From the NCBI GenBank assembly GCA_003485325.1, contig DMZI01000037.1, positions 16,018 to 80,017 on the forward strand: a stretch of 64,000 nt of DNA. The letters run 5' to 3'. Origin of the DNA: Desulfotomaculum sp. (GTDB lineage Bacteria; Bacillota; Desulfotomaculia; Desulfotomaculales; Nap2-2B). Shown piece by piece: positions 10,722-61,736 of this stretch (position 1 is its first letter; each line of letters begins with the position of its first letter). The position numbers and the translations under genes were made by a program. Below the pieces are notes generated by a model. That model was not told the DNA's origin. It searched no databases and saw nothing but the letters and a program-made list of their open reading frames with translations.

Positions 10722-10858
10722 CAAACCCGGATTCCCTTTCGGCGCTTACGAGGTTAGCTGACGGATTCGGGAAAAGGGAATTCCCTGCCAAAATCGGTTT
10801 CACCCCAATAAAAATCGGTTCCCCCGCTCTCTCTTCATAAGAGATTCGGCGCATTTTT
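10722..10858 (-). promoter_or_regulatory. c-di-AMP riboswitch (ydaO-yuaA class)
   Basis: The minus strand reads CGCCGAAUCUC...AGAGCGGGGGAACC...GGGGUGAAAC...CCCGAAUCCGUCAGCUAACCUCGUAAGCGCCGAAAGGGAAUCC. This carries the hallmark GGGGA-CC, GGGGUGAA and CAGCUAACCUCGUAAGCG blocks of the ydaO motif as I remember it. Confidence 0.85.
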
Positions 10859-11114
10859 AAACTGCAGTATCAATTTTAAAGCAGTCAATACATGGGCATA
10901 CTCCGTTCGCTTGTTTTTATAATCTTAGATAATAATTCAATATCATTTAAGATTGGTTTTTATATTTATGATAAACTGTATTTGTGGCAGAATTACGGAA
11001 CAATTCAATAGACGTATAAAATTATTTTTAGATTGACTACTTCATATATTTTTGCCACAATTCTGACCTATACTATAAATAAGTTAAAAAGGAGACAGAG
11101 ATATCCTTAAAGAG

Positions 11115-38680: not shown

Positions 38681-38732
38681 AAAAGTATAACTTTACTCAT
38701 CCTTATAAAAATTATAAGGAGCTAAAGCCTTA

Positions 38733-38860
38733 AAACCTTCTCCCATCCAGACTGTTACTGTCGGCCCTGGATTTTCACCAGATCAGCCATAAAGGCTAGC
38801 GGGCTCAAAACCTAGTCGCTTCTTACCGCCGATAGGGAATTCCACCCGTCCCCGAAGGTG
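38733..38860 (-). promoter_or_regulatory. FMN riboswitch (RFN element)
   Basis: The minus strand reads CCUUCGGGGACGGGUGGAAUUCCCUAUCGGCGGUAAGAAGC...AGCCCGCUAGCC...GAUCUGGUGAAAAUCCAGGGCCGACAGUAACAGUCUGGAUGGGAGAAGGU. This is a near-consensus RFN element. Confidence 0.92.
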
Positions 38861-38874
38861 TTATTTTTATAAAT

Positions 38875-42775: not shown

Positions 42776-43860
42776 TTATTTCTTCTCCATTATTTCCACA
42801 AAAACATTCGCTATTTCCGGGTCGAGCTGGGCGCCTGAACAGCGGGAAATCTCCTTTAAAGCCTCGTCGAAACCGGCTCCCTTGCGGTAAGGGCGGTCGG
42901 TGGTAATTGCATCAAAAGTATCCGCAACGGCAATTATCCTGCCCACAAGGGGAATATCGTATCCTTTTACCCCCTGAGGATAGGATAGCCGCTGCCGTCG
43001 AATTTTTCCTGGTGGTACATCGCTCCTTCATAAATCCCTTCGGCAAGCTGCCGGGGTTCCAAATCGGCAAGGATACGCGTGCCGATTTCCGGGTGCATTT
43101 TCATAATGTTCCACTCTTCGGAAGAGAGCGGTCTCTGAAGAAGAAGAACATTGTCCCGAATACCGATCTTGCCCACATCGTGCAGCAGGGCAGCCCTTTC
43201 CAGTAATTCCAATTCCTCGGGCGAAAATCCGAGTCCTTTTCCAATCATCACGGAATATTGGCTGACCCTCTCGGAATGGCCGTGTGTATAAGGGTCGCGG
43301 GCGTCCAAAGATGAGGCGAGCACCCTGATCAGGCTGTTCAGGAGCATTCCCTGCCAGGTATAAAGCCGGCTGTTTTCCAAGGAGATTGCCGCCTGCCAGG
43401 CAAAAGCCAGTACGATATCCAAGTCTGATTCCGTGAAATACTGCTCCCTTTCTTTATTCAGAAGCTGCAGGCATCCGATTACTTCTTTCCGGCCTCTTAA
43501 AGGTATACACAAAAGGGAACGGGTGACAAACCCTGTCGCGTCGTCAAACCGCCCGGCCCACGAGGCGTCCAGGTGGACATTCTTGATCAGGCGCGGCTCA
43601 TTTTCCGCCACGACCTGCCCTGCCAGACCTTCTCCTGGTTTAAGACGCAGGCCTTTTAAATCGTCAGCCTTGGGACCCCTGGCCACAAAAGGCGCCAGGT
43701 AACCGTCCTCTTCAGCCAGCCAAAGGGTTCCCGCCTCGGCGGATACAACCGCCATTGCCCTTTCAAGCACCAGTTCGAGAAGTTTTTCAAGCTCAAGCTG
43801 GGAATTTAAAAAACGGCTTGTTTCCAGAAGCATTTGCATTTGTTCTGAGGTAATCTGCAA
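42776..43860 (-). pseudogene. GAF + HD-GYP phosphodiesterase gene, frameshifted by a 5-bp tandem duplication
   Basis: The 297-aa ORF ends ...HQEKFDGSGYPILRG*. Another frame continues [67 protein letters not shown] to 42776. Gene strand GGC TATCC TATCC TCAG (42978-42987); deleting one TATCC restores GYPQGVKG. Confidence 0.85.
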
Positions 43861-44117: not shown

Positions 44118-44195
44118 CGGGATGTGGCGCAGCTTGGCTAGCGCGCTTGCCTTGGGCGCAAGAGGCCGGGGGTTCAAATCCCTCCATCCCGACCA
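44118..44195 (+). tRNA. tRNA-Pro (anticodon UGG), CCA encoded
   Basis: Hand-folded cloverleaf. Acceptor CGGGATG/CATCCCG, D arm GCGC-AGCTTGGCTA-GCGC, anticodon arm CTTGC-CTTGGGC-GCAAG, T arm GGGGG-TTCAAAT-CCCTC, then A73-CCA. Confidence 0.9.
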
Positions 44196-44206
44196 ACTTT
44201 GACTAT

Positions 44207-44282
44207 GGACCGTTAGCTCAATTGGCAGAGCAGGCGACTCTTAATCGTCAGGTTGGGGGTTCGATGCCCTCACGGTCCACCA
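44207..44282 (+). tRNA. tRNA-Lys (anticodon CUU), CCA encoded
   Basis: Acceptor GGACCGT/ACGGTCC, D arm GCTC-AATTGGCA-GAGC, anticodon arm GGCGA-CTCTTAA-TCGTC, T arm GGGGG-TTCGATG-CCCTC. Confidence 0.9.
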
Positions 44283-52820: not shown

Positions 52821-54074
52821 ATGTCAAACGAAGCGCAAAACAACCCCAAATTTTTTTACGGCTGGATCGTTGTTATAGCCCTTACTTTTGTCGGAATGAC
52901 GTCAGCCGCGCAGCTGACCTTCGGCATTTATGTCCTTGATCTGGCCAGGGAATTTGGCTGGAACAGAGCGCTCACATCTTCCCTGGCTTCGTTTAATAAC
53001 CTGTTCTATGGAATTTCGGCTATTATAACCGGTATCCTGGCGGATCGATACAGCCCCAAGATTACCGTCTGGGTGGCCGGGTTTCTTTTGGGCGGCGGGC
53101 TTCTTTTATCCGGCATGGCTCAAAACTACTGGCAGTTGTTTTTCTTTTTCGGGGTCATCGCCGGCCTCGGCACAGGATGCTGCTATTCAATTCCGTCTTC
53201 AGTCGTTCAAAAGTGGTTTATAGAAAAAAGAGGGGTTGCCCTGGGCGTCAGCATGTGCGGGATAGGCCTCGGCGCCTTCATCATCTCCCTGCTGGTAGGT
53301 TATCTCATTCCCATTTACGGGTGGCGGACAGGTTTTTTCGCTGAAGGGGCCCTTCTTTTCTTATTTATGTTCGTCCCCGCCTTTTTCATCGTCCGTGAAC
53401 CCCGTCAAATAGGCCTGCTGCCTTTGGGCATGAAAAATAGTCATCCTGACAACGGGCTTAATAAGCCCCACACCAATCTCGTCCTGCTGATTAAAAAACT
53501 GATCTCCAACCGGACCTTTTTATTGCTTTACGCCAATCAATTTTTTACCTGTATTGCGCTGTTGATTGTCTCCACCCACGTCGTGCCCTTTGCCGAGGAT
53601 ATGGGCATCCCCAAACTGGTGGCGGCAAGCGCAATGGGGCTGGTGGGTTTGTTCAGCGGTGTGGGGAGACTGCAGGCAGGTTTCGTCTGCGACAAAATCG
53701 GCTTCAAGAAAAGCCTGATTATTTTCTGCAGTATGTGCTGTATTGCCTTTTTGTATTTAATCACGGTGAAAAATATATGGATGCTCTATATTTTCGTGGT
53801 TATCTATTCCCTGGGTTACGGAGGCAAAGCCATGTCCCTGCCGGGCTTGGCGGGCTACTCGCTGGGAACGGGCTCGCTCGGCACAATAATGGGACTGATC
53901 TCCTCCGCATTCGGTCTGGGAGGTTTTATAGGCTCGATAATGGGCGGCTGGATTTTTGACCACACCCACAGCTATGTCTGGGCTTTTATCGCCGGCGCGT
54001 TTTGCTACGTAATAGCCATAATCTGCGCTTATCTAACCAAAAAAGAAACTGTCCTAGAAATTAACTTGCATTAG
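52821..54074 (+). CDS. MFS transporter (oxalate/formate antiporter-like), paralogue 2
   Basis: A tandem paralogue of the previous gene (FFYGWIVVIA...). The last 7 codons (LEINLH*) lie inside repeat copy A. Confidence 0.85.
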   Translation: MSNEAQNNPKFFYGWIVVIALTFVGMTSAAQLTFGIYVLDLAREFGWNRALTSSLASFNNLFYGISAIITGILADRYSPKITVWVAGFLLGGGLLLSGMAQNYWQLFFFFGVIAGLGTGCCYSIPSSVVQKWFIEKRGVALGVSMCGIGLGAFIISLLVGYLIPIYGWRTGFFAEGALLFLFMFVPAFFIVREPRQIGLLPLGMKNSHPDNGLNKPHTNLVLLIKKLISNRTFLLLYANQFFTCIALLIVSTHVVPFAEDMGIPKLVAASAMGLVGLFSGVGRLQAGFVCDKIGFKKSLIIFCSMCCIAFLYLITVKNIWMLYIFVVIYSLGYGGKAMSLPGLAGYSLGTGSLGTIMGLISSAFGLGGFIGSIMGGWIFDHTHSYVWAFIAGAFCYVIAIICAYLTKKETVLEINLH

Positions 54075-54248
54075 GAAGGTCAACTGCCTACGTGCTCATG
54101 TTCGCCTCTTATTCTTATACGAATTCGTTCACCCTCGGGCTTAAGTCAAACTCGGCATATTTCAAACCGCAGCAAGTTGTTTAAGCCTGCTCCATTTTAC
54201 ATACTCAGGCGCGCCACATATTTTAACGTTTGCTTATTTGGACTATCC
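54052..54248 (+). repeat. mosaic intergenic repeat, copy A (57-nt head + A/C-type body, ends CTATCC)
   Basis: The head at 54052-54108 has 3 mismatches to the family consensus. The body shares CTTATTCTTATACGAATTCGTTCACCCTCGGGCT with copy C. The unit fills the whole spacer between the MFS2 and acyl-CoA synthetase stops. Confidence 0.8.
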
Positions 54249-56360
54249 GGTTAATAAAATACGTGAATCAACAACCAACGCTTTATTTGGATAAACAATT
54301 ACAGGGTTCATATCAATTTCTTTAATCTGTGTGAAAGTTGTTACCAGAGTTGAGATTTTCATCAAGATATCGACAATCGGTTCAAGATTGACGACCACCC
54401 GGCCCCGGTAGCCTTGCAACAAAGAAAATCCCTTTATTTCTTGGATCATCTCTCTGGCCGCCAGGGTATTTAAAGGCAATAGCCTGAAGGAGACGTCATG
54501 ATAAACCTCTACAGTTGTTCCTCCCAGGCCAAACATTATGACCGGGCCGAACTGGTTATCCGTAATAGCTCCGATGATAACTTCTATACCTGGAGGGGCC
54601 ATAGGTTGAATACTTACGCGGACCAGGGGATCAAAGCATCTGCCTTTCAAGATAATTTCTTCATAAGCTTCCTTGATTTCTTTTTCACCGGCTAAATTCA
54701 GCATAACCCCGCCAATATCTGATTTGTGCACGATTAAAGGAGAGACAAGTTTTAAGACCACCGGCGTTCCCAATGAAGCTGCTGCACGACATGCTTCTTC
54801 TGAGCTTTCAATTGTTTTAACCGGGGTAACAGAGATCCCAGCTGTAGACAAAAATTCTTTTGCTTCCGGTTCAGTTAAAACATTTCGCCCTTCTTGTTCA
54901 ACTCCGGCAAGAATGAATTTAGCTTTTGCTTCATCCAACGCTGCCTGAGAGCTTTGCTCTGAAATGATTGTTTCTTTCTTTTGCCTTATGTCAGCGTAAC
55001 GGTATAAATTGGCCAGTGCCCGTGCCATCCTATCCGGTAACCTATAGACAGGTATATTTTTTCTTTCAATATCTTTTAGCTTACTGTCATTCGCTTCTGC
55101 GGGTGAATCCTGCATCAAAACAAAAGGTTTGGTGATTTCTCCGGCTGCTGCAAGCTGTTCGACAGCTTCCAGAATATTCGGTGTATACTCCGGATGATGA
55201 GTATTCAATAAAGCTACCATGTCAACATTATTATCTTGCATTATAAGCCTGAGCGTCTGAATAATAATTTGTTTATCTGATACCCCAAAGGTTATATCTA
55301 TAGGATTAGAGTGTAAAGTATAACGGGCCATTGAAGACAGACAGTTATCAAGTGCTTCTATAGTAGAATGCTCAAGTTCCGCTAATTTCAGCCCTTCTTG
55401 TTCGGCGACGCTGGTAAAAATAATCCCCAGGCCAGCCTGTACAGTAGCGATACCTACCCGGTTACCACGCGGAATAGGCGAAAGAGAAAGGATCTTGGCC
55501 GTATCTATTAGTTCATCAATGCTTGTCACACCGATAATCCCAGCATCCCGAAAGGCGGTCTGGTAGAGGTAAAAACTACCTGTCAGCGTCCCCGTATGAG
55601 AAAACGCTGCCCTGTTAACAGCCTCGGATCCTCTTACTTTATATGCCACTACGGGCTTAAACATAGTTATTTTCTTAGCTTCTTCAAGCAAAAGACGGGG
55701 ATTTTCTATTCCCTCCAGATACATTAAAACTACTTTTATTTCAGGATCACTGCCGAAATGAGCCAGGATGTCGGAAAACTCTACGTTACAGCGATTACCT
55801 AAAGCAACCGCTTTGCTTGTTCCTATGTTTTCATTTAACAAGGCGTAAAGAACAAGCATACAAACTCCTCCACTTTGACTGATCAATCCGATTGGACCCC
55901 GTGGGACCTCTTTTAAAAAAGGTACGAAGGAAAGATTTAAAGAACAGGCAGTATTTATTAATCCCAGGGTATTCGGCCCGATTATTTTCACTCCTGTCTC
56001 AATCGCAGACTGTAAGATTTCTTTTTCCAACTCCTGTCCGGTTTCAGCCTCTTTGAATCCTGAACTGATAATTATAACTCCCTTCGCTCCCGCTCTTGCA
56101 CAGTCTAAAACAGCTTCTTTAACAGCCTGGGAAGGGACAACGATTAAACCTATGTCGAAAGTTTCAGGTAATTCGGTAACCGAAGGATAAGTTATCACAC
56201 CGAATATTTCTTCATGATGAGGATTTATAGGATAAATAGTTCCCTTATACCCGCATTGTAAAAGGCTCATAAGACATAGACCGCCAGCCTTATAACTGTC
56301 ACTGGAAGCGCCGATTACAGCTACTGACTTCGGATTAAAAAAATAATTTAGAAGATCCAT
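54243..56360 (-). CDS. ADP-forming acyl-CoA synthetase (fused CoA-binding/ligase + ATP-grasp)
   Basis: 705 aa with an N-terminal CoA-binding domain (KSVAVIGASSDSYKAGG), a succinyl-CoA-ligase-like domain and a C-terminal ATP-grasp. It is visibly more AT-rich than its neighbours. Confidence 0.85.
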   Translation of the reverse strand: MDLLNYFFNPKSVAVIGASSDSYKAGGLCLMSLLQCGYKGTIYPINPHHEEIFGVITYPSVTELPETFDIGLIVVPSQAVKEAVLDCARAGAKGVIIISSGFKEAETGQELEKEILQSAIETGVKIIGPNTLGLINTACSLNLSFVPFLKEVPRGPIGLISQSGGVCMLVLYALLNENIGTSKAVALGNRCNVEFSDILAHFGSDPEIKVVLMYLEGIENPRLLLEEAKKITMFKPVVAYKVRGSEAVNRAAFSHTGTLTGSFYLYQTAFRDAGIIGVTSIDELIDTAKILSLSPIPRGNRVGIATVQAGLGIIFTSVAEQEGLKLAELEHSTIEALDNCLSSMARYTLHSNPIDITFGVSDKQIIIQTLRLIMQDNNVDMVALLNTHHPEYTPNILEAVEQLAAAGEITKPFVLMQDSPAEANDSKLKDIERKNIPVYRLPDRMARALANLYRYADIRQKKETIISEQSSQAALDEAKAKFILAGVEQEGRNVLTEPEAKEFLSTAGISVTPVKTIESSEEACRAAASLGTPVVLKLVSPLIVHKSDIGGVMLNLAGEKEIKEAYEEIILKGRCFDPLVRVSIQPMAPPGIEVIIGAITDNQFGPVIMFGLGGTTVEVYHDVSFRLLPLNTLAAREMIQEIKGFSLLQGYRGRVVVNLEPIVDILMKISTLVTTFTQIKEIDMNPVIVYPNKALVVDSRILLTG

Positions 56361-56619
56361 CCTCCTATCGAAATCCTTTCATATTTTTTTTATTTCTTAA
56401 AATCTTCTAAGACCTTCCTTTCTTCCAGCACACTTAACATTCTACATGACCGTAAAATCCTGGATCATCAATAAAAATAATAACATATCTGAATTTAAAA
56501 GAAAACAGCTATAAAGCATTAGCATGAATTAAGAAAGGGTGAAAATGTGAGTGTAGGAAGTTGTCTTAGTAGGAATAATCCTTCTGGATGGTTGACAGCC
56601 ATCCAAACATGCTTTAGAA

Positions 56620-56946
56620 ACCTTTTTAGTTAAATCTCGCTGATAATAGGCTATATAATTCCCATTTACGGGTGGCGGACAGGTTTTTCGCTGAGGGAGT
56701 TCTTCTTTTTTTTATTCATGTTCGTACCTGCCTTTTTTATTGTTCGGGATCCGGGAGAAAAAGTCCTTCTGCCTTATGGAGCGAAAAATAATCATCCCGA
56801 CAACGGGCTTAATAAGTCCCATCCCAATCTAGTCCTGCTGATTAAAAAACTGATCTCATAGCTACGTGTGGGCTTTCATTGCCGGCGCAGTTTGCTACGT
56901 GGTGGCCATAACTTTCGCTTTCCTGACTAAAAAGGAACTATCCTGA
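56620..56946 (+). pseudogene. internally deleted, frameshifted remnant of a third MFS paralogue
   Basis: 56633-56868 aligns to MFS2 53283-53510 (…ATTCCCATTTACGGGTGGCGGACAGG…CTGCTGATTAAAAAACTGATCTC) with indels. 56870-56946 aligns to MFS2 53967-54055. About 450 nt between the two segments is missing. Confidence 0.8.
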
Positions 56947-57296
56947 AAATAAGTATCCGATAGGCACGGCAATATCAACGCTCACTCCGGTGCTCCGCAC
57001 CGACAGCAGCACGGCTTGCTTCGGACCGGACTAGCGGTGCTGCAAAGGCGGCATGGCAAATTTTAAAAATATAGCTTCCATTATACTTCTGATCTCATTT
57101 AGCCTCTTCAAGAAACTACCAGTGTGCCGCTGGTTTCGCACCGCTGTCCGGTTACCCTCGCTTCGCCGGCTGCTGTTACCGGCGCTTCGCAATTCGTTCG
57201 CTGTTGACAACACCGTGCCCTTTGGACGGTTTTACTGAATGCTTACTTTTTCATCCTTCTGATGGCGCCGCTTGAAAGCGGCATGGGTGTCTATCC
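56941..57296 (+). repeat. mosaic repeat, copy X (head truncated to TCCTGAAAAT; long body; ends CTATCC)
   Basis: It is preceded by CTATCC (56938-43). It contains a B/D-type tail variant (GCTCACTCCGGTGCTCCGCACCGAC), an AT-rich core at 57055-57120 and the C-type end TTTTCATCCTTCTG...AGCGGCATGGGTGTCTATCC. Confidence 0.7.
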
Positions 57297-57420
57297 TGAA
57301 AATTAACTTGCATTAGGGAGGCCAACTGCCTTCGTGCTCATGTTCGCCTCAGACCGTCGTTGTCACGGTTTGCTCAGGTGCTCCGTGCCGGCATCGCCAA
57401 CGATTCGCTTCGAACCTGGA
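57294..57420 (+). repeat. mosaic repeat, copy B (57-nt head + B/D-type tail)
   Basis: The head at 57294-57350 has 2 mismatches. The tail is AGACCGTCGTTGTCACGGTTTGCTCAGGTGCTCCGTGCCGGCATCGCC. It abuts copy X head-to-tail and runs up to the pyrF stop. Confidence 0.8.
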
Positions 57421-58100: not shown

Positions 58101-58114
58101 AAAAGCCCTTTCTA

Positions 58115-58369
58115 TCCTGAAAATTAACTTGCCTTAGGGAGGTCAACTGCCTACGTGCTCATGTTCGCCTCTTATACTTGTACGAACTCGTTCGCCCTCG
58201 GGCTCGGTAAAACTCGGCGCCATGCGCCTCAAACAGTTACCTCGCTTTACCTCGGGTTCACTCGTTCTTCGAATGAAGGCTCAAAATCGCACTTAAGGCA
58301 TTGCCCTCCCTTTGCTGATGAATTTTCATCCTCCTGCTGGTGTCACTTTAGCGGCATGGATGTCTATCC
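58115..58369 (+). repeat. mosaic repeat, copy C (57-nt head + A/C-type body + tail, flanked by TCTATCC)
   Basis: The head at 58115-58171 has 1 mismatch. TCTATCC occurs at 58111-17 and 58363-69. It fills the whole spacer between the fmdB-like stop and the pyrF RBS. Confidence 0.85.
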
Positions 58370-58835: not shown

Positions 58836-61649
58836 ATGGACTACAGCAAGACCCTGAATCTGCCCCGTACGGATTTCCCGATGAGGGCTAATTTGCCTGT
58901 TCGCGAACCTGAAATCCTGAAATTCTGGAATGACATAGGTATTTACCGCCTGGTCCAGCAAAAAAACACAGGACGGCCGAAGTTTATCCTCCATGACGGG
59001 CCGCCCTACGCCAACGGCCATATCCACCTCGGACATACTTTAAACAAGATCCTCAAAGACATTGTGATTAAATATCACTCCATGGTGGGCTACGACGCGC
59101 CCTATGTGCCCGGATGGGACACCCACGGGCTGCCGATAGAACAGCAGGCAATCAAAAGCCTGGGCTTAAACAGGCATTCGATCAGTACCGTGGAATTTCG
59201 CAACAAATGCAAGGAATATGCGCTCAAATTCGTTGACATTCAAAGAGACGAATTCAAACGCCTGGGGGTGCGCGGGGACTGGGACCATCCTTACCTGACG
59301 CTGATGCCCCATTATGAGGCGGCCCAGATCGGGGTTTTCGGGGAAATGGCCAGGAGGGGCTTTATTTACAAGGGTTTAAAGCCGGTCTACTGGTGCGCAG
59401 CCTGTGAGACAGCGCTTGCCGAGGCCGAAGTCGAGTACCAGGACAAGCACTCTCCCTCGATTTACGTGAGGTTTTCCGTAACCGGCGGCAAGGGCGTCCT
59501 GCCGGAAAAGGACACCTGGGTCATCATCTGGACGACGACACCCTGGACACTTATTTCAAACACTGCAATCTGCCTTCATCCCGACTACGAATATGTGCTG
59601 TTTAAGTCCGGGGACAATAAATATCTGGTTGCCAAAGAACTTCTGGAAAACTTTTGCAATACAGCGGGCTTAAACTGCGAACAGATCCTGGATGAGTTTG
59701 CAGGACGGGCTCTCGAAGGCGTCTGCTGCAGGCATCCCTTCTTCGGCAGAGATTCAAAATTGGTCCTGGATACTTATGTAACACTGGATGCAGGCACCGG
59801 ATGCGTGCATATCGCCCCGGGCCACGGCCATGAAGATTATCTTGTAGGCCTGCGATACAACCTGCCGATGCTGTCGCCGATTGACAACCACGGCATCTTC
59901 ACTGAAGAAGCCGCTCAATTTGCCGGGCTGTTCTACAGCGACGCGAACGATAAGGTCAAAGAGGAGCTTTTGCAAAGCGGACATCTGCTCAAAGAGGAAA
60001 CAATTTCACACCAGTACCCCCATTGCTGGCGCTGCAAAAAGCCGATCCTGTTCAGGGCTACCGAACAGTGGTTTGCTTCCGTGGAAGGATTCCGCCAGGA
60101 TACCCTGGATGCTATTCACGGCGTAAGGTGGATCCCCCCCTGGGGTGAAGAACGCATTTGCAATATGGTGGCCGGCAGAAGCGATTGGTGCATTTCCCGG
60201 CAGCGGACATGGGGGGTGCCGATACCAATTTTCTACTGCGCCGGCTGCGGAAAGGAAATCATCAGCAAAGACACCACCGAGCATTTGCAGAAGCTGTTCC
60301 GCTCTCATGGTTCCGACGTGTGGTTTGCCCGCGAGGCTGAGGAACTTATTCCTGAAGGTTTGTCCTGCCCCGAATGCGGCGGGACCGTGTTTAATAAAGA
60401 AAATGACATTATGGACGTCTGGTTTGACAGCGGAACCAGCCACGCAGGCGTGCTGGAACAGCCCGAAATCTGGCCGGACTTAAGATGGCCGGCTGACCTT
60501 TACCTGGAAGGAAGCGATCAGTACCGGGGATGGTTCAACAGTTCCCTGTCAACTGCAATCGCCAGCCGGGGAGAGGCGCCTTACCGGGCTGTCCTGACGC
60601 ACGGTTTCGTGGTCGACGAAAAAGGGTACAAGATGAGCAAATCCCTGGGCAACGTCGTTGACCCGATGAAAGTAATCAAGCAGATGGGAGCCGATATCCT
60701 GCGCCTGTGGGTCAGTTCGACGGACTACCGCAGCGACCTGGCGGCTTCGCCAAATATCCTGAACCAGTTGTCCGACGCTTACCGGAAAATCCGCAACACC
60801 TGCAGGTTTCTTTTAGGCAATCTTTACGACTTTTCTTTAAAAACCGACCGGGTATCCTATCATAAAATGCCCGAGATTGACCGCTGGGCTCTTTTAAAGC
60901 TCCACCAGTTAATCCAGCGCGTGCTGACAGCATACAGCAATTATGACTACCACGTCGTTTATCATGCGGCGCACGGCTTTTGCGTCCTTGACATGAGCGC
61001 GCTTTACCTGGATATTATCAAAGACCGGCTCTACACGTCGCCGGCTAATTCACTTCAGAGGCGGTCGGCGCAAACTGTTCTGCACGAAACTTTAAATGTG
61101 CTGGTGCGCCTTTTAGTACCCATCCTCGCCTTTACAAGCGAAGAAATCTGGGGCTACCTTCCCAAGGAGGAAGGAACGCCGGTCAGCGTACAGATGACCG
61201 ATCTGCCGGAAGTCAATGAAGAATACCTGGATATCGAACTGGGCAAAAAGTGGGAAAAGCTTCTGGAAGTCCGGGAGGAAGCGACCCGTATCCTCGAGCA
61301 GGCGAGAAGGGACAAATTAATCGGCAACTCCCTTGAAGCGGCGGTTGACTTATATGCTGCGGGTGAACTTTTTGATTTCCTGCGGGATTCAGCGGAAGAG
61401 CTTTCCACCCTTTTTATAGTCTCCTCGGTAAAACTGCATCGCGCGTCTCAGGAGGACATCTTAAGCCCTGCGGCGGTAAACGGCCTGGCCGTAAAGGTCC
61501 GGCGGGCGCATGGCGAAAAATGTGAAAGATGCTGGATGTACCATGAAGATGTAGGAAAGAACGCCGCGTACCCGACACTGTGCCCGCGCTGTTCGGAAAC
61601 AGTCAGCAATATGGTAATGCCCGGCACGGAGCACTTGAGCGAACCGTGA
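58836..61649 (+). CDS. ileS: isoleucine--tRNA ligase (type 1, C-terminal zinc finger)
   Basis: HIGH motif PYANGHIHLGH, KMSKS motif YKMSKSLGN, a CP1 editing domain and C-terminal CERC...CPRC. ATG 58836 follows GAGGTG. About the last 20 codons overlap repeat copy D. Confidence 0.95.
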   Translation: MDYSKTLNLPRTDFPMRANLPVREPEILKFWNDIGIYRLVQQKNTGRPKFILHDGPPYANGHIHLGHTLNKILKDIVIKYHSMVGYDAPYVPGWDTHGLPIEQQAIKSLGLNRHSISTVEFRNKCKEYALKFVDIQRDEFKRLGVRGDWDHPYLTLMPHYEAAQIGVFGEMARRGFIYKGLKPVYWCAACETALAEAEVEYQDKHSPSIYVRFSVTGGKGVLPEKDTWVIIWTTTPWTLISNTAICLHPDYEYVLFKSGDNKYLVAKELLENFCNTAGLNCEQILDEFAGRALEGVCCRHPFFGRDSKLVLDTYVTLDAGTGCVHIAPGHGHEDYLVGLRYNLPMLSPIDNHGIFTEEAAQFAGLFYSDANDKVKEELLQSGHLLKEETISHQYPHCWRCKKPILFRATEQWFASVEGFRQDTLDAIHGVRWIPPWGEERICNMVAGRSDWCISRQRTWGVPIPIFYCAGCGKEIISKDTTEHLQKLFRSHGSDVWFAREAEELIPEGLSCPECGGTVFNKENDIMDVWFDSGTSHAGVLEQPEIWPDLRWPADLYLEGSDQYRGWFNSSLSTAIASRGEAPYRAVLTHGFVVDEKGYKMSKSLGNVVDPMKVIKQMGADILRLWVSSTDYRSDLAASPNILNQLSDAYRKIRNTCRFLLGNLYDFSLKTDRVSYHKMPEIDRWALLKLHQLIQRVLTAYSNYDYHVVYHAAHGFCVLDMSALYLDIIKDRLYTSPANSLQRRSAQTVLHETLNVLVRLLVPILAFTSEEIWGYLPKEEGTPVSVQMTDLPEVNEEYLDIELGKKWEKLLEVREEATRILEQARRDKLIGNSLEAAVDLYAAGELFDFLRDSAEELSTLFIVSSVKLHRASQEDILSPAAVNGLAVKVRRAHGEKCERCWMYHEDVGKNAAYPTLCPRCSETVSNMVMPGTEHLSEP

Positions 61650-61718
61650 CAACGACGGCATGAGGTGAACATGAGCACATAGGCAGTTGTCCTCCCTAAT
61701 GCAAATTAATTTTCAGGA
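61600..61718 (-). repeat. mosaic repeat, copy D (inverted; 57-nt head + B/D-type tail)
   Basis: The head is the reverse complement of 61662-61718, with 4 mismatches. The tail CCGTCGTTGTCACGGTTCGCTCAAGTGCTCCGTGCCGGG extends into the ileS 3' end. The left boundary is approximate. Confidence 0.8.
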
Positions 61719-61736
61719 CGGAGAGTGAACTTAATA

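Follow-up and report, generated by a model that had tools for sequence, protein, structure and literature searches.

A frameshifted GAF+HD-GYP gene

The window analysed here is a stretch of 64,000 nucleotides from Desulfotomaculum sp. (GenBank assembly GCA_003485325.1, contig DMZI01000037.1, positions 16,018 to 80,017), and it contains on its minus strand a gene of the HD-GYP family that is broken by a five-nucleotide tandem duplication, TATCC-TATCC. The 5' fragment of the gene (42967..43860, minus strand) is an open reading frame (ORF) of 297 aa with a TTG start at 43860, encoding a GAF domain and the part of the HD-GYP domain that ends with the GYP tripeptide, followed by an out-of-frame ILRG and a TAA stop, such that the protein ends in GSGYPILRG. 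The duplication occupies 42978..42987 (minus strand), within the codons GGC TAT CCT of the GYP motif. The minus strand around it reads ...GACGGCAGC GGC TATCC TATCC TCAGGGGGTAAAAGG, with the codons TTC GAC GGC AGC GGC TAT CCT ATC CTC AGG GGG TAA, and the stop is reached four codons past GYP. The decamer TATCCTATCC has its sole exact copy in the window at this position, the chance expectation being 0.09 copies, with at least one copy in 8 of 100 shuffles. The period-5 tract spans 12 nt (CTATCCTATCCT, in the region 42976-42989) and is equally readable as two units of CTATC or of ATCCT. The 3' remnant of the gene (42776..42977, minus strand) is now in the -1 frame and ends in EKK followed by the stop; a 56-aa ORF with a GTG start and an HD_5 match (42776-42946, minus strand) is called inside it.

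Deletion of one pentamer in silico yields an ORF of 1080 nt and 359 aa that reaches the stop codon at 42776-42778. The repaired protein matches Pfam GAF (2e-18) and the full length of the HD-GYP-type HD model (Pfam HD_5 / COG2206; profile positions 2-170 of 170, E=2.7e-33), of which the present allele covers only the part up to GYP. An earlier reading of this DNA from its letters alone (the sequence-only reading) had located the tandem TATCC and the end of the ORF four codons later, and both agree with the sequence and the 297-aa ORF. It had further proposed that a single copy restores a complete HD-GYP domain of about 360 aa; a complete protein is indeed recovered, and the ~360 aa are those of the entire two-domain GAF+HD-GYP protein, not of the HD-GYP domain alone.

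Comparison with orthologues

Five orthologous loci (L005, L007, L009, L023 and L051) share a neighbourhood of glyoxalase, HD-GYP gene, two MaoC dehydratases, DUF2953 and thiolase, and every one of them, in four orthologous lineages, has a single TATCC at the site. The codons there are GGC TAT CCC CGG GGG GTA in L005, L007, L009 and L023, and GGC TAT CCA CAG GGT GTA in L051. Because these orthologues carry one TATCC, the doubled tract is an insertion and not a chance repeat, and the comparison with orthologues that the sequence-only reading had proposed identifies the window allele as the derived one.

The same lesion is present outside the window. Over 6333 nt, Logan contig SRR6485785_174 matches the window at 100% identity, TATCCTATCC included, and its protein P0002 is identical to the 297-aa protein. 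The GenBank protein KUK54430.1, from the metagenome-assembled genome (MAG) Desulfotomaculum sp. 46_296 (2015-16), has the same GYPILRG end, and the isoleucyl-tRNA synthetase (IleRS) of the window is 100% identical to that of the 46_296 MAG. A search with the repaired protein against 5.8 billion proteins gave no intact allele above 93% identity, and all 100%-identical matches end at GYPILRG; a scan of JGI metagenomes for both alleles of the site (TATCC N0-10 TCAGGGGGTAAAAGGATA) gave no match.

An assembly or sequencing artefact, with a single TATCC in the true genome, is the least probable of all the explanations considered here. The source is metagenomic and the lesion is known from assemblies rather than reads, but it recurs in the window, in the independent Logan assembly of raw reads and in the MAG protein, and a 5-bp duplication outside a homopolymer is not a typical error. 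An artefact is very unlikely because the three assemblies give an identical 5-bp non-homopolymer insertion. The sequence-only reading had likewise held that this is not a typical sequencing error, and had named independent assemblies with a single TATCC as the observation that would overturn its account; the Logan contig and KUK54430.1 are both of the doubled type. On these comparisons the doubled pentamer is a genuine, derived mutation, and apparently a fixed one.

Several other features lie at or near this locus. A group II intron reverse-transcriptase/maturase ORF (RVT_1 + GIIM) is located about 3 kb upstream of the intact HD-GYP gene in two of the relatives (L005:173-823 and L009:109-759; the P0001 lineage), and has no counterpart at the corresponding place in the window. 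A tRNA-Pro(TGG)/tRNA-Lys(CTT) pair lies at 44118-44282 (plus strand), just upstream of the broken gene. Elsewhere the window also has a c-di-AMP (ydaO) riboswitch at 10729-10861 (minus strand) and an FMN riboswitch at 38731-38863 (minus strand), ahead of a rib operon.

Predicted effect on the protein

Residues 6-356 of the repaired protein align end to end (E=3.6e-54) with PmGH, the GAF+HD-GYP cyclic di-GMP (c-di-GMP) phosphodiesterase of Persephonella marina (PDB 4MCW; PMC4159591), with which it shares two-domain architecture and length. The PmGH residues with equivalents in the repaired protein include the HD dyad, K225, H250, H276, the GYP motif, I294, D305, D308 and R314. The HD dyad and GYP are both present in the window gene, with LLHDVGK and DGSGYP aligning with H221/D222 and G284-P286. 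In contrast to PmGH, however, the window gene is frameshifted directly after GYP: the equivalents of I294, D305, D308, R314 and K317 all lie 3' of GYP, in the 3' remnant, and are now out of frame, such that no single frame holds them together with the dyad, and the 297-aa product lacks everything from helix alpha10 onward.

Eight iron ligands are described in PmGH (E185, H189, H221, D222, H250, H276, H277 and D305), and D308 stabilises the metal centre. The D308A mutant, like most metal-ligand mutants, is essentially inactive, E185A and D305A retain reduced activity, and R314 and K317 bind a guanine (PMC4159591). Because the equivalents of D305, D308 and R314/K317 are lost from the reading frame, the 297-aa truncated protein is predicted from the PmGH mutants to be inactive, and the present allele is, as judged from its sequence, a pseudogene of the HD-GYP family and not a functional member.

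The ancestral activity should also be worded with care. The family signature is HHExh(D/N)GxGYP, and versions with a degenerate HHE are inactive regulators (Galperin, bioRxiv 10.1101/2021.11.05.467447). The signature region of the window gene is YHQEKFDGSGYP, with HQE replacing HHE (codons YHQ-E at window 43024-43032), such that the second His of HHE, the metal ligand H277 in PmGH, is Gln across the entire orthologue group. HQE is common to P0001, P0004, P0005, P0007, P0012, P0036, P0020 and P0116, and more distant homologues keep HHE. The position of PmGH E185 is occupied by Tyr throughout this GAF+HD-GYP orthologue group, which places the window gene in the Y/F subgroup of PMC4159591. The name phosphodiesterase is accordingly an annotation-level label even for the intact HQE orthologues, whose catalytic competence is putative.

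That the gene still works, through recoding or as two pieces, is highly improbable. The run of five Gs directly before the stop would permit perfect -1 re-pairing of the P-site tRNA-Gly on AGG-GGG-TAA, with GTA as the next codon and in the frame needed (GTA AAA GGA..., GYPILRGVKG), giving a 361-aa product containing ...GYPILRGVKGYD...; this G-run and the sequence downstream are, however, as in the intact orthologues (CGGGGGGTAAAAGG or CAGGGGGTAAAAGG), with no dedicated signal evolved and no canonical X-XXY-YYZ heptamer. A split enzyme could be made by re-initiation at the GTG of the 56-aa downstream ORF, called with its HD_5 match, but that piece would be without 10 residues of the conserved GYP loop. 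Both routes also sit poorly with a young lesion and with sister lineages that simply lost the gene, as described below, and any read-through of the stop would be incidental and low.

Loss of the gene in sister lineages

The pairwise ratio of nonsynonymous to synonymous substitution rates (dN/dS) is 0.09-0.16 for all orthologue pairs, and the 69 codons downstream of the break give 0.08-0.13 against the intact L005 and L051, with no visible decay. Since dN/dS is about 0.1 in all pairs, strong purifying selection acted until very recently, and the lesion is recent.

What is new here is that two sister lineages break the same gene by different lesions. In loci L002, L003 and L004, from a sister lineage with 93% nucleotide identity (L004 is GCA_002418775.1 DIEU01000070.1), the gene is recognisable up to GACGGCAG, 8 nt upstream of the TATCC; the unrelated DNA that follows starts TGACACAAGGGGACG, and its opposite strand encodes a Y2_Tnp (IS91-family) transposase C-terminus. 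The region concerned is L002:3097-3617; all three contigs end within the IS91-like DNA, and one junction of the insertion is seen. In L023 (L023:95-125; JGI 3300010235) the GAF-coding part has gained one nucleotide (CTGAATAAAG to CTAAAATAAAG), a unique insertion that creates a TAA stop, and the '46_80'-type proteins (KUK63283.1, KUK84503.1 and others) match this lesion, with only a 209-212-aa C-terminal ORF called in five assemblies. KUK54430.1 (P0029), which shares the window lesion, is also without 70 aa of the GAF domain (at LELEKLL/DSWAGRF, about window 43500-43780), reflecting either a collapse during assembly or continued decay within the population.

The three broken lineages are mutual closest relatives, with dS values of 0.12-0.20 among them as against 0.35-0.39 to the intact L005 and L051. 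One orthologue has been lost in three independent ways, recently, in three sister lineages. This pattern, from which we infer a selective cause, points to relaxed or reversed selection on the gene, or to a benefit of its loss, in this clade.

These losses also bear on a reading in which the gene is switched, not lost. As one of two origins, the sequence-only reading had offered slipped-strand ON/OFF variation, that is, a contingency locus in which the pentamer alternates between one and two copies by slipped-strand mispairing and the enzyme is ON or OFF within the population; we consider this very unlikely. The CTCTT repeats of Neisseria opa genes are pentanucleotide contingency loci, and the window site likewise has a 5-nt coding tandem repeat that sets the frame, which is the format of such loci; reversion from two copies to one would also be mechanistically possible. 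In contrast to opa and other known switches with many units, however, the site has two units and no length polymorphism is seen: instead of a long array with varying copy number there are two copies in the same-strain assemblies and one in other lineages. All five orthologous loci are single-unit, the 100%-identical matches are all doubled, and the protein search gave no single-copy allele of this strain. Repeated recent loss in three lineages argues against a reversible switch, and the two sister lineages lost the gene irreversibly or by other routes, which fits loss. With two units, relatives that are all single-copy and no intact same-strain allele, the ON/OFF proposal is left unsupported.

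A mosaic repeat family with TATYC junctions

The window holds five copies (A-E) of a repeat family, and about 20 copies, including those in relatives, were compared. Copy A (54050..54248, plus strand) follows TGTCC and runs from TAGAAATTAACTTGC to GGAC TATCC; its left part (54050-54074) provides the final codons of a major facilitator superfamily (MFS) transporter ORF (...KKETVLEINLH, then the stop). Copy B (56939..57296, plus strand) follows TATCC and runs from TGAAAATAAG to GGGTGTC TATCC, the right pentamer doubling as the left junction of copy C (57297..57416, plus strand), which is truncated on its right side and ends ...GCTTCGAACC beside a native terminator hairpin. Copy D (58113..58369, plus strand) is bounded by TATCC on either side and comprises TGAAAATTAACTTGCCTTAGGGAGG ... 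CCCTCCCTTTGCTGATGAATTTTCA plus a hairpin tail of about 45 nt ending in GGATGTC; its body (58118-58364, 247 bp) lies between the stop of a Zn-ribbon gene and the start of pyrF. Copy E (61621..61721, minus strand) is truncated, follows CGTCC and begins TGAAAATTAATTTGC...; it displaces the native stop of the IleRS gene and lengthens the ORF, which ends ...NIVMPE in L045 and ...NMVMPGTEHLSEP in the window.

Full copies have TGAAAATTAACTTGCCTTAGGGAGG on the left, then its inverted partner CCCTCCC...GAATTTTCA, then the hairpin tail of about 45 nt ending in GGNTGTC; mini copies of 36-57 bp retain just both ends. The left junction, the 5 nt before TGAAAAT, is TATCC in about 10 of 20 copies and differs from it by 1-3 mismatches in the others (TATTC, TACTC, TTTCC, TGTCC, TATCT, CGTCC, AATTC and CATAC), and the right boundary is invariably GTC-TATYC. 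The termini TGAAAAT... and ...GGNGTC are not mutual inverted copies, the long inverted repeat stopping about 45 nt short of the right boundary. When GTDB representative genomes were scanned with the core AAATTAACTTGCNTTAGGNAGG, exact matches came up at 11 loci; most belong to MAG SO_2017_LW3_34, whose overlap with the window (L017) has 97-99% identity. No Rfam family covers the repeats at gathering thresholds, and neither a transposase partner nor an autonomous element was found for them. The mosaic repeat family with TATYC junctions is previously undescribed.

[quoted passage not shown] The window family is likewise short (36-360 bp), non-coding, modular and intergenic, with multiple diverged copies in one genome, and like MITE-type repeats it has a long internal inverted repeat (TGAAAATTAACTTGCCTTAGGGAGG / CCCTCCC...GAATTTTCA), varies in presence between close relatives and is flanked by short direct repeats. 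Unlike them it has no terminal inverted repeats at its actual termini, which are asymmetric (TGAAAAT ... GGNGTC), and it has a hairpin tail outside the inverted repeat and a strongly conserved TATYC pentamer. Two other assignments were not adopted. If the inner inverted repeat were flanked by a 3-bp TCC duplication, the tail would have to be its own nested insertion in each copy; and although the right-end hairpin and fixed pentamer fit an IS200/IS605-like element, no left-end hairpin is apparent by eye (the sequence was not folded). A possible second family of repeats or insertion sequence (IS) ends is suggested by a perfect long palindrome at L045:4866-4940 (GGGGACGGTTCTCCTGTGTCTTAAGACACAGGAGAACCGTCCCC, preceded by GACACAAGAGACACAAGGGGACG), which shares a GACACAAGGGGACG motif with the end of the IS91-like DNA in L002.

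Orthologous sites are found both filled and empty. Between pyrF and the Zn-ribbon gene, the window reads CTTTC TATCC (247 bp) TATCC ATCAATC and L050 has a mini copy, CTTTC TATTC (50 bp) TATTC ATCATTC; the empty sites are CTTTC TGTTC ATTAC in L045 and CTTTC TATTT ATCAATC in L047. At the 3' end of the MFS gene, between it and pyrF, L050 is filled (TATCC, about 75 bp, TATCC), L045 and L047 are empty (CCTGC and CATGC, respectively), and the window has a 3.37-kb block (54050-57416) bounded by copies A and C. The block is absent from L045 and L047, in which the MFS gene is followed directly by the terminator hairpin and pyrF, and it contains copy A, an ORF for a 705-aa acyl-CoA synthetase (ADP-forming)-like protein (54243-56360, minus strand), a 3' fragment of an MFS paralogue (56634-56938) and copies B and C. 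With family copies of one orientation at its bounds, it has the look of an insertion that carries genes. Because these comparisons set filled sites against clean empty sites with one pentamer, the repeats are inserted DNA, and the insertions in this lineage (copies D and E and the 3.37-kb block) postdate its split from a lineage with 95% IleRS identity.

The sequence-only reading had noted TATCC at both junctions of the repeats, and this holds for the family as pentamers of the TATYC type, with flanks that covary between copies: TATCC/TATCC in the window, TATTC/TATTC in L050 and CATAC/TATAC beside a mini copy in L005. It had also asked whether insertions are flanked by 5-bp duplications of TATCC. 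Flanking pentamer repeats do occur at filled sites and one pentamer at empty sites, but the likeness of left flank and right end often extends to 7-8 nt (TCTATCC), leaving the length of the flanking repeat ambiguous at 5-8 nt, and the right copy always follows GTC. Two models fit the junctions equally well: in one, insertion duplicates a short target for which the element has a strong preference; in the other, the element's end is fixed and the target resembles it. Fixed-target chemistries (HUH enzymes and tyrosine or serine site-specific recombinases) excise precisely and leave no footprint.

Some further loci were considered as comparisons. L017 was rejected as an empty site for copy B, being a complex replacement rather than cleanly empty. 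Where copy B would lie (L017:790-864 against window 56637-57276) it has only a 75-bp stretch with a mini version (CTACTC followed by TGAAAATAAGTTTTTCA and a hairpin tail) and is without the MFS fragment, and elements at that locus differ by large internal deletions or replacements. The flanks of a copy downstream of an isochorismatase gene in L047, and of the L005 mini copy, are too diverged for filled and empty states to be compared with the window. A scan of JGI metagenomes with the pyrF protein for empty sites returned only distant relatives, at no more than 46% identity.

Origin of the duplication

Short tandem duplications arising by slipped-strand mispairing at microhomology make frameshift pseudogenes, as at the lacI CTGG hotspot, and the window lesion is alike in having a short doubled unit, a short flanking direct repeat (CT...CT), a frameshift and an early stop. 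The sequence itself shows the CT..CT microhomology. The ancestral site would have been GG-CT-ATC-CT-CAG, with the dinucleotide CT repeated 5 nt apart, in a gene of the population to which the Desulfotomaculum sp. 46_296 MAG corresponds; were the two CTs misaligned in replication, the product would be exactly CTATC-CTATC-CT, the 12-nt period-5 tract within the GYP codons, and the resulting frameshift would stop translation four codons on and leave the 297-aa product. Ordinary replication slippage across CT-ATC-CT is thus the most likely origin, and the duplication belongs to an ordinary kind of event, a genuine recent frameshift pseudogene. Overall, the locus is probably a young pseudogene of a PmGH-type GAF+HD-GYP gene, made by a slippage-derived 5-bp duplication and forming one of three sister-lineage knock-outs.

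A number of observations weigh against this account. The 2-nt microhomology is a weak slippage substrate, and the site differs from the lacI CTGG type in having no pre-existing tandem repeat. The duplicated unit coincides with the pentamer at the junctions of a family whose insertions in this lineage date from the same period, an identity that we estimate would be expected by chance in well under 2% of 5-bp duplications and that slippage leaves unexplained. In the roughly 75 kb of orthologous DNA that was aligned, the lesion is the only clean indel of the 5-bp tandem-duplication type. The three assemblies with the doubled pentamer may share one sample, loss of activity is predicted from PmGH mutants, and the HQE of the orthologue group leaves activity before the lesion putative.

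The pentamer identity is the basis for an alternative that we regard as possible but unlikely, in which the mosaic repeat family, with its TATYC targets, left the doubled TATCC as a scar of excision or abortive insertion. A family member would have entered GGC-TAT-CCT at its TATCC, duplicating 5 bp of target, and later been excised exactly at its ends, the flanks being rejoined, for example, by Ku/LigD end joining to leave TATCC-TATCC; in a variant of this, the element's enzyme would have made an abortive cut at the pentamer it prefers, and the repair would have duplicated the pentamer. Footprints that retain a target-site duplication are common for eukaryotic cut-and-paste elements and are, to our knowledge, rarely documented in bacteria. 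The window site resembles them in that a short sequence identical to the repeat flanking the element is doubled, no element sequence is left and the frame is shifted; it differs in that no occupied allele is known and in the ambiguous duplication length of the element.

In favour of a scar, the pentamer match is exact and the preceding C also fits an extended consensus CTATCC; 10 of about 20 left junctions are TATCC, with the rest variants of 1-3 mismatches, and right ends are always GTC-TATYC; and the covarying flanks (window, L050 and L005), the clean one-pentamer empty sites (L045 and L047) and the insertions postdating the split from the lineage with 95% IleRS identity count on the same side, the pentamer identity and the timing of the insertions being real evidence for a footprint. 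L013 has CTATCC-TATCT directly before an element end, as may be expected by chance among about 20 copies. Retention of the target duplication upon exit of prokaryotic transposons has been discussed, and raised as a possibility for haloarchaeal IS (PMC3119063).

On the other side, no element was found in this gene in any relative or homologue, no empty site has a doubled pentamer, and no transposase partner was identified. The 7-8-nt likeness of flanks and ends means that the duplication length is possibly not 5, and the junctions are also compatible with an HUH enzyme or a tyrosine/serine recombinase that is guided to its target by homology and excises precisely. Decamers within one mismatch of TATCCTATCC are mildly enriched (20 observed, 12.4 +/- 3.6 simulated, in about 195 kb of related DNA), which is not decisive, and no second footprint-like indel occurs in the roughly 75 kb aligned. 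The footprint that the sequence-only reading had put forward thus retains its central observation, the unit being equal to the junction pentamer of an inserting family, but has neither an occupied allele nor a second doubled indel in its favour. A survey for other TATCC-TATCC duplications, which it had also suggested, gave none in the window besides the lesion and none as a clean 5-bp indel in the same alignments.

Implications

Were the doubled pentamer a scar of the repeat family, HD-GYP genes would carry a built-in target for the element, since the Tyr-Pro of GYP can be encoded by TAT-CCN; the family would be one of few documented bacterial mobile elements whose loss leaves the target duplication in place, and cut-and-paste transposition with end joining would be implied in a spore-forming anaerobe. 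Irrespective of the lesion, the repeat family remodels gene ends in this genome, extending the IleRS and MFS ORFs and bounding a 3.4-kb gene-carrying insertion.

For annotation, the broken locus is one GAF+HD-GYP pseudogene and not two genes. The three knock-outs of this gene, by a 5-bp duplication, an IS91-family junction and a 1-nt insertion, occur in lineages from hydrocarbon/oil-reservoir-type metagenomes, which suggests that loss of this regulator is tolerated or advantageous in that habitat.

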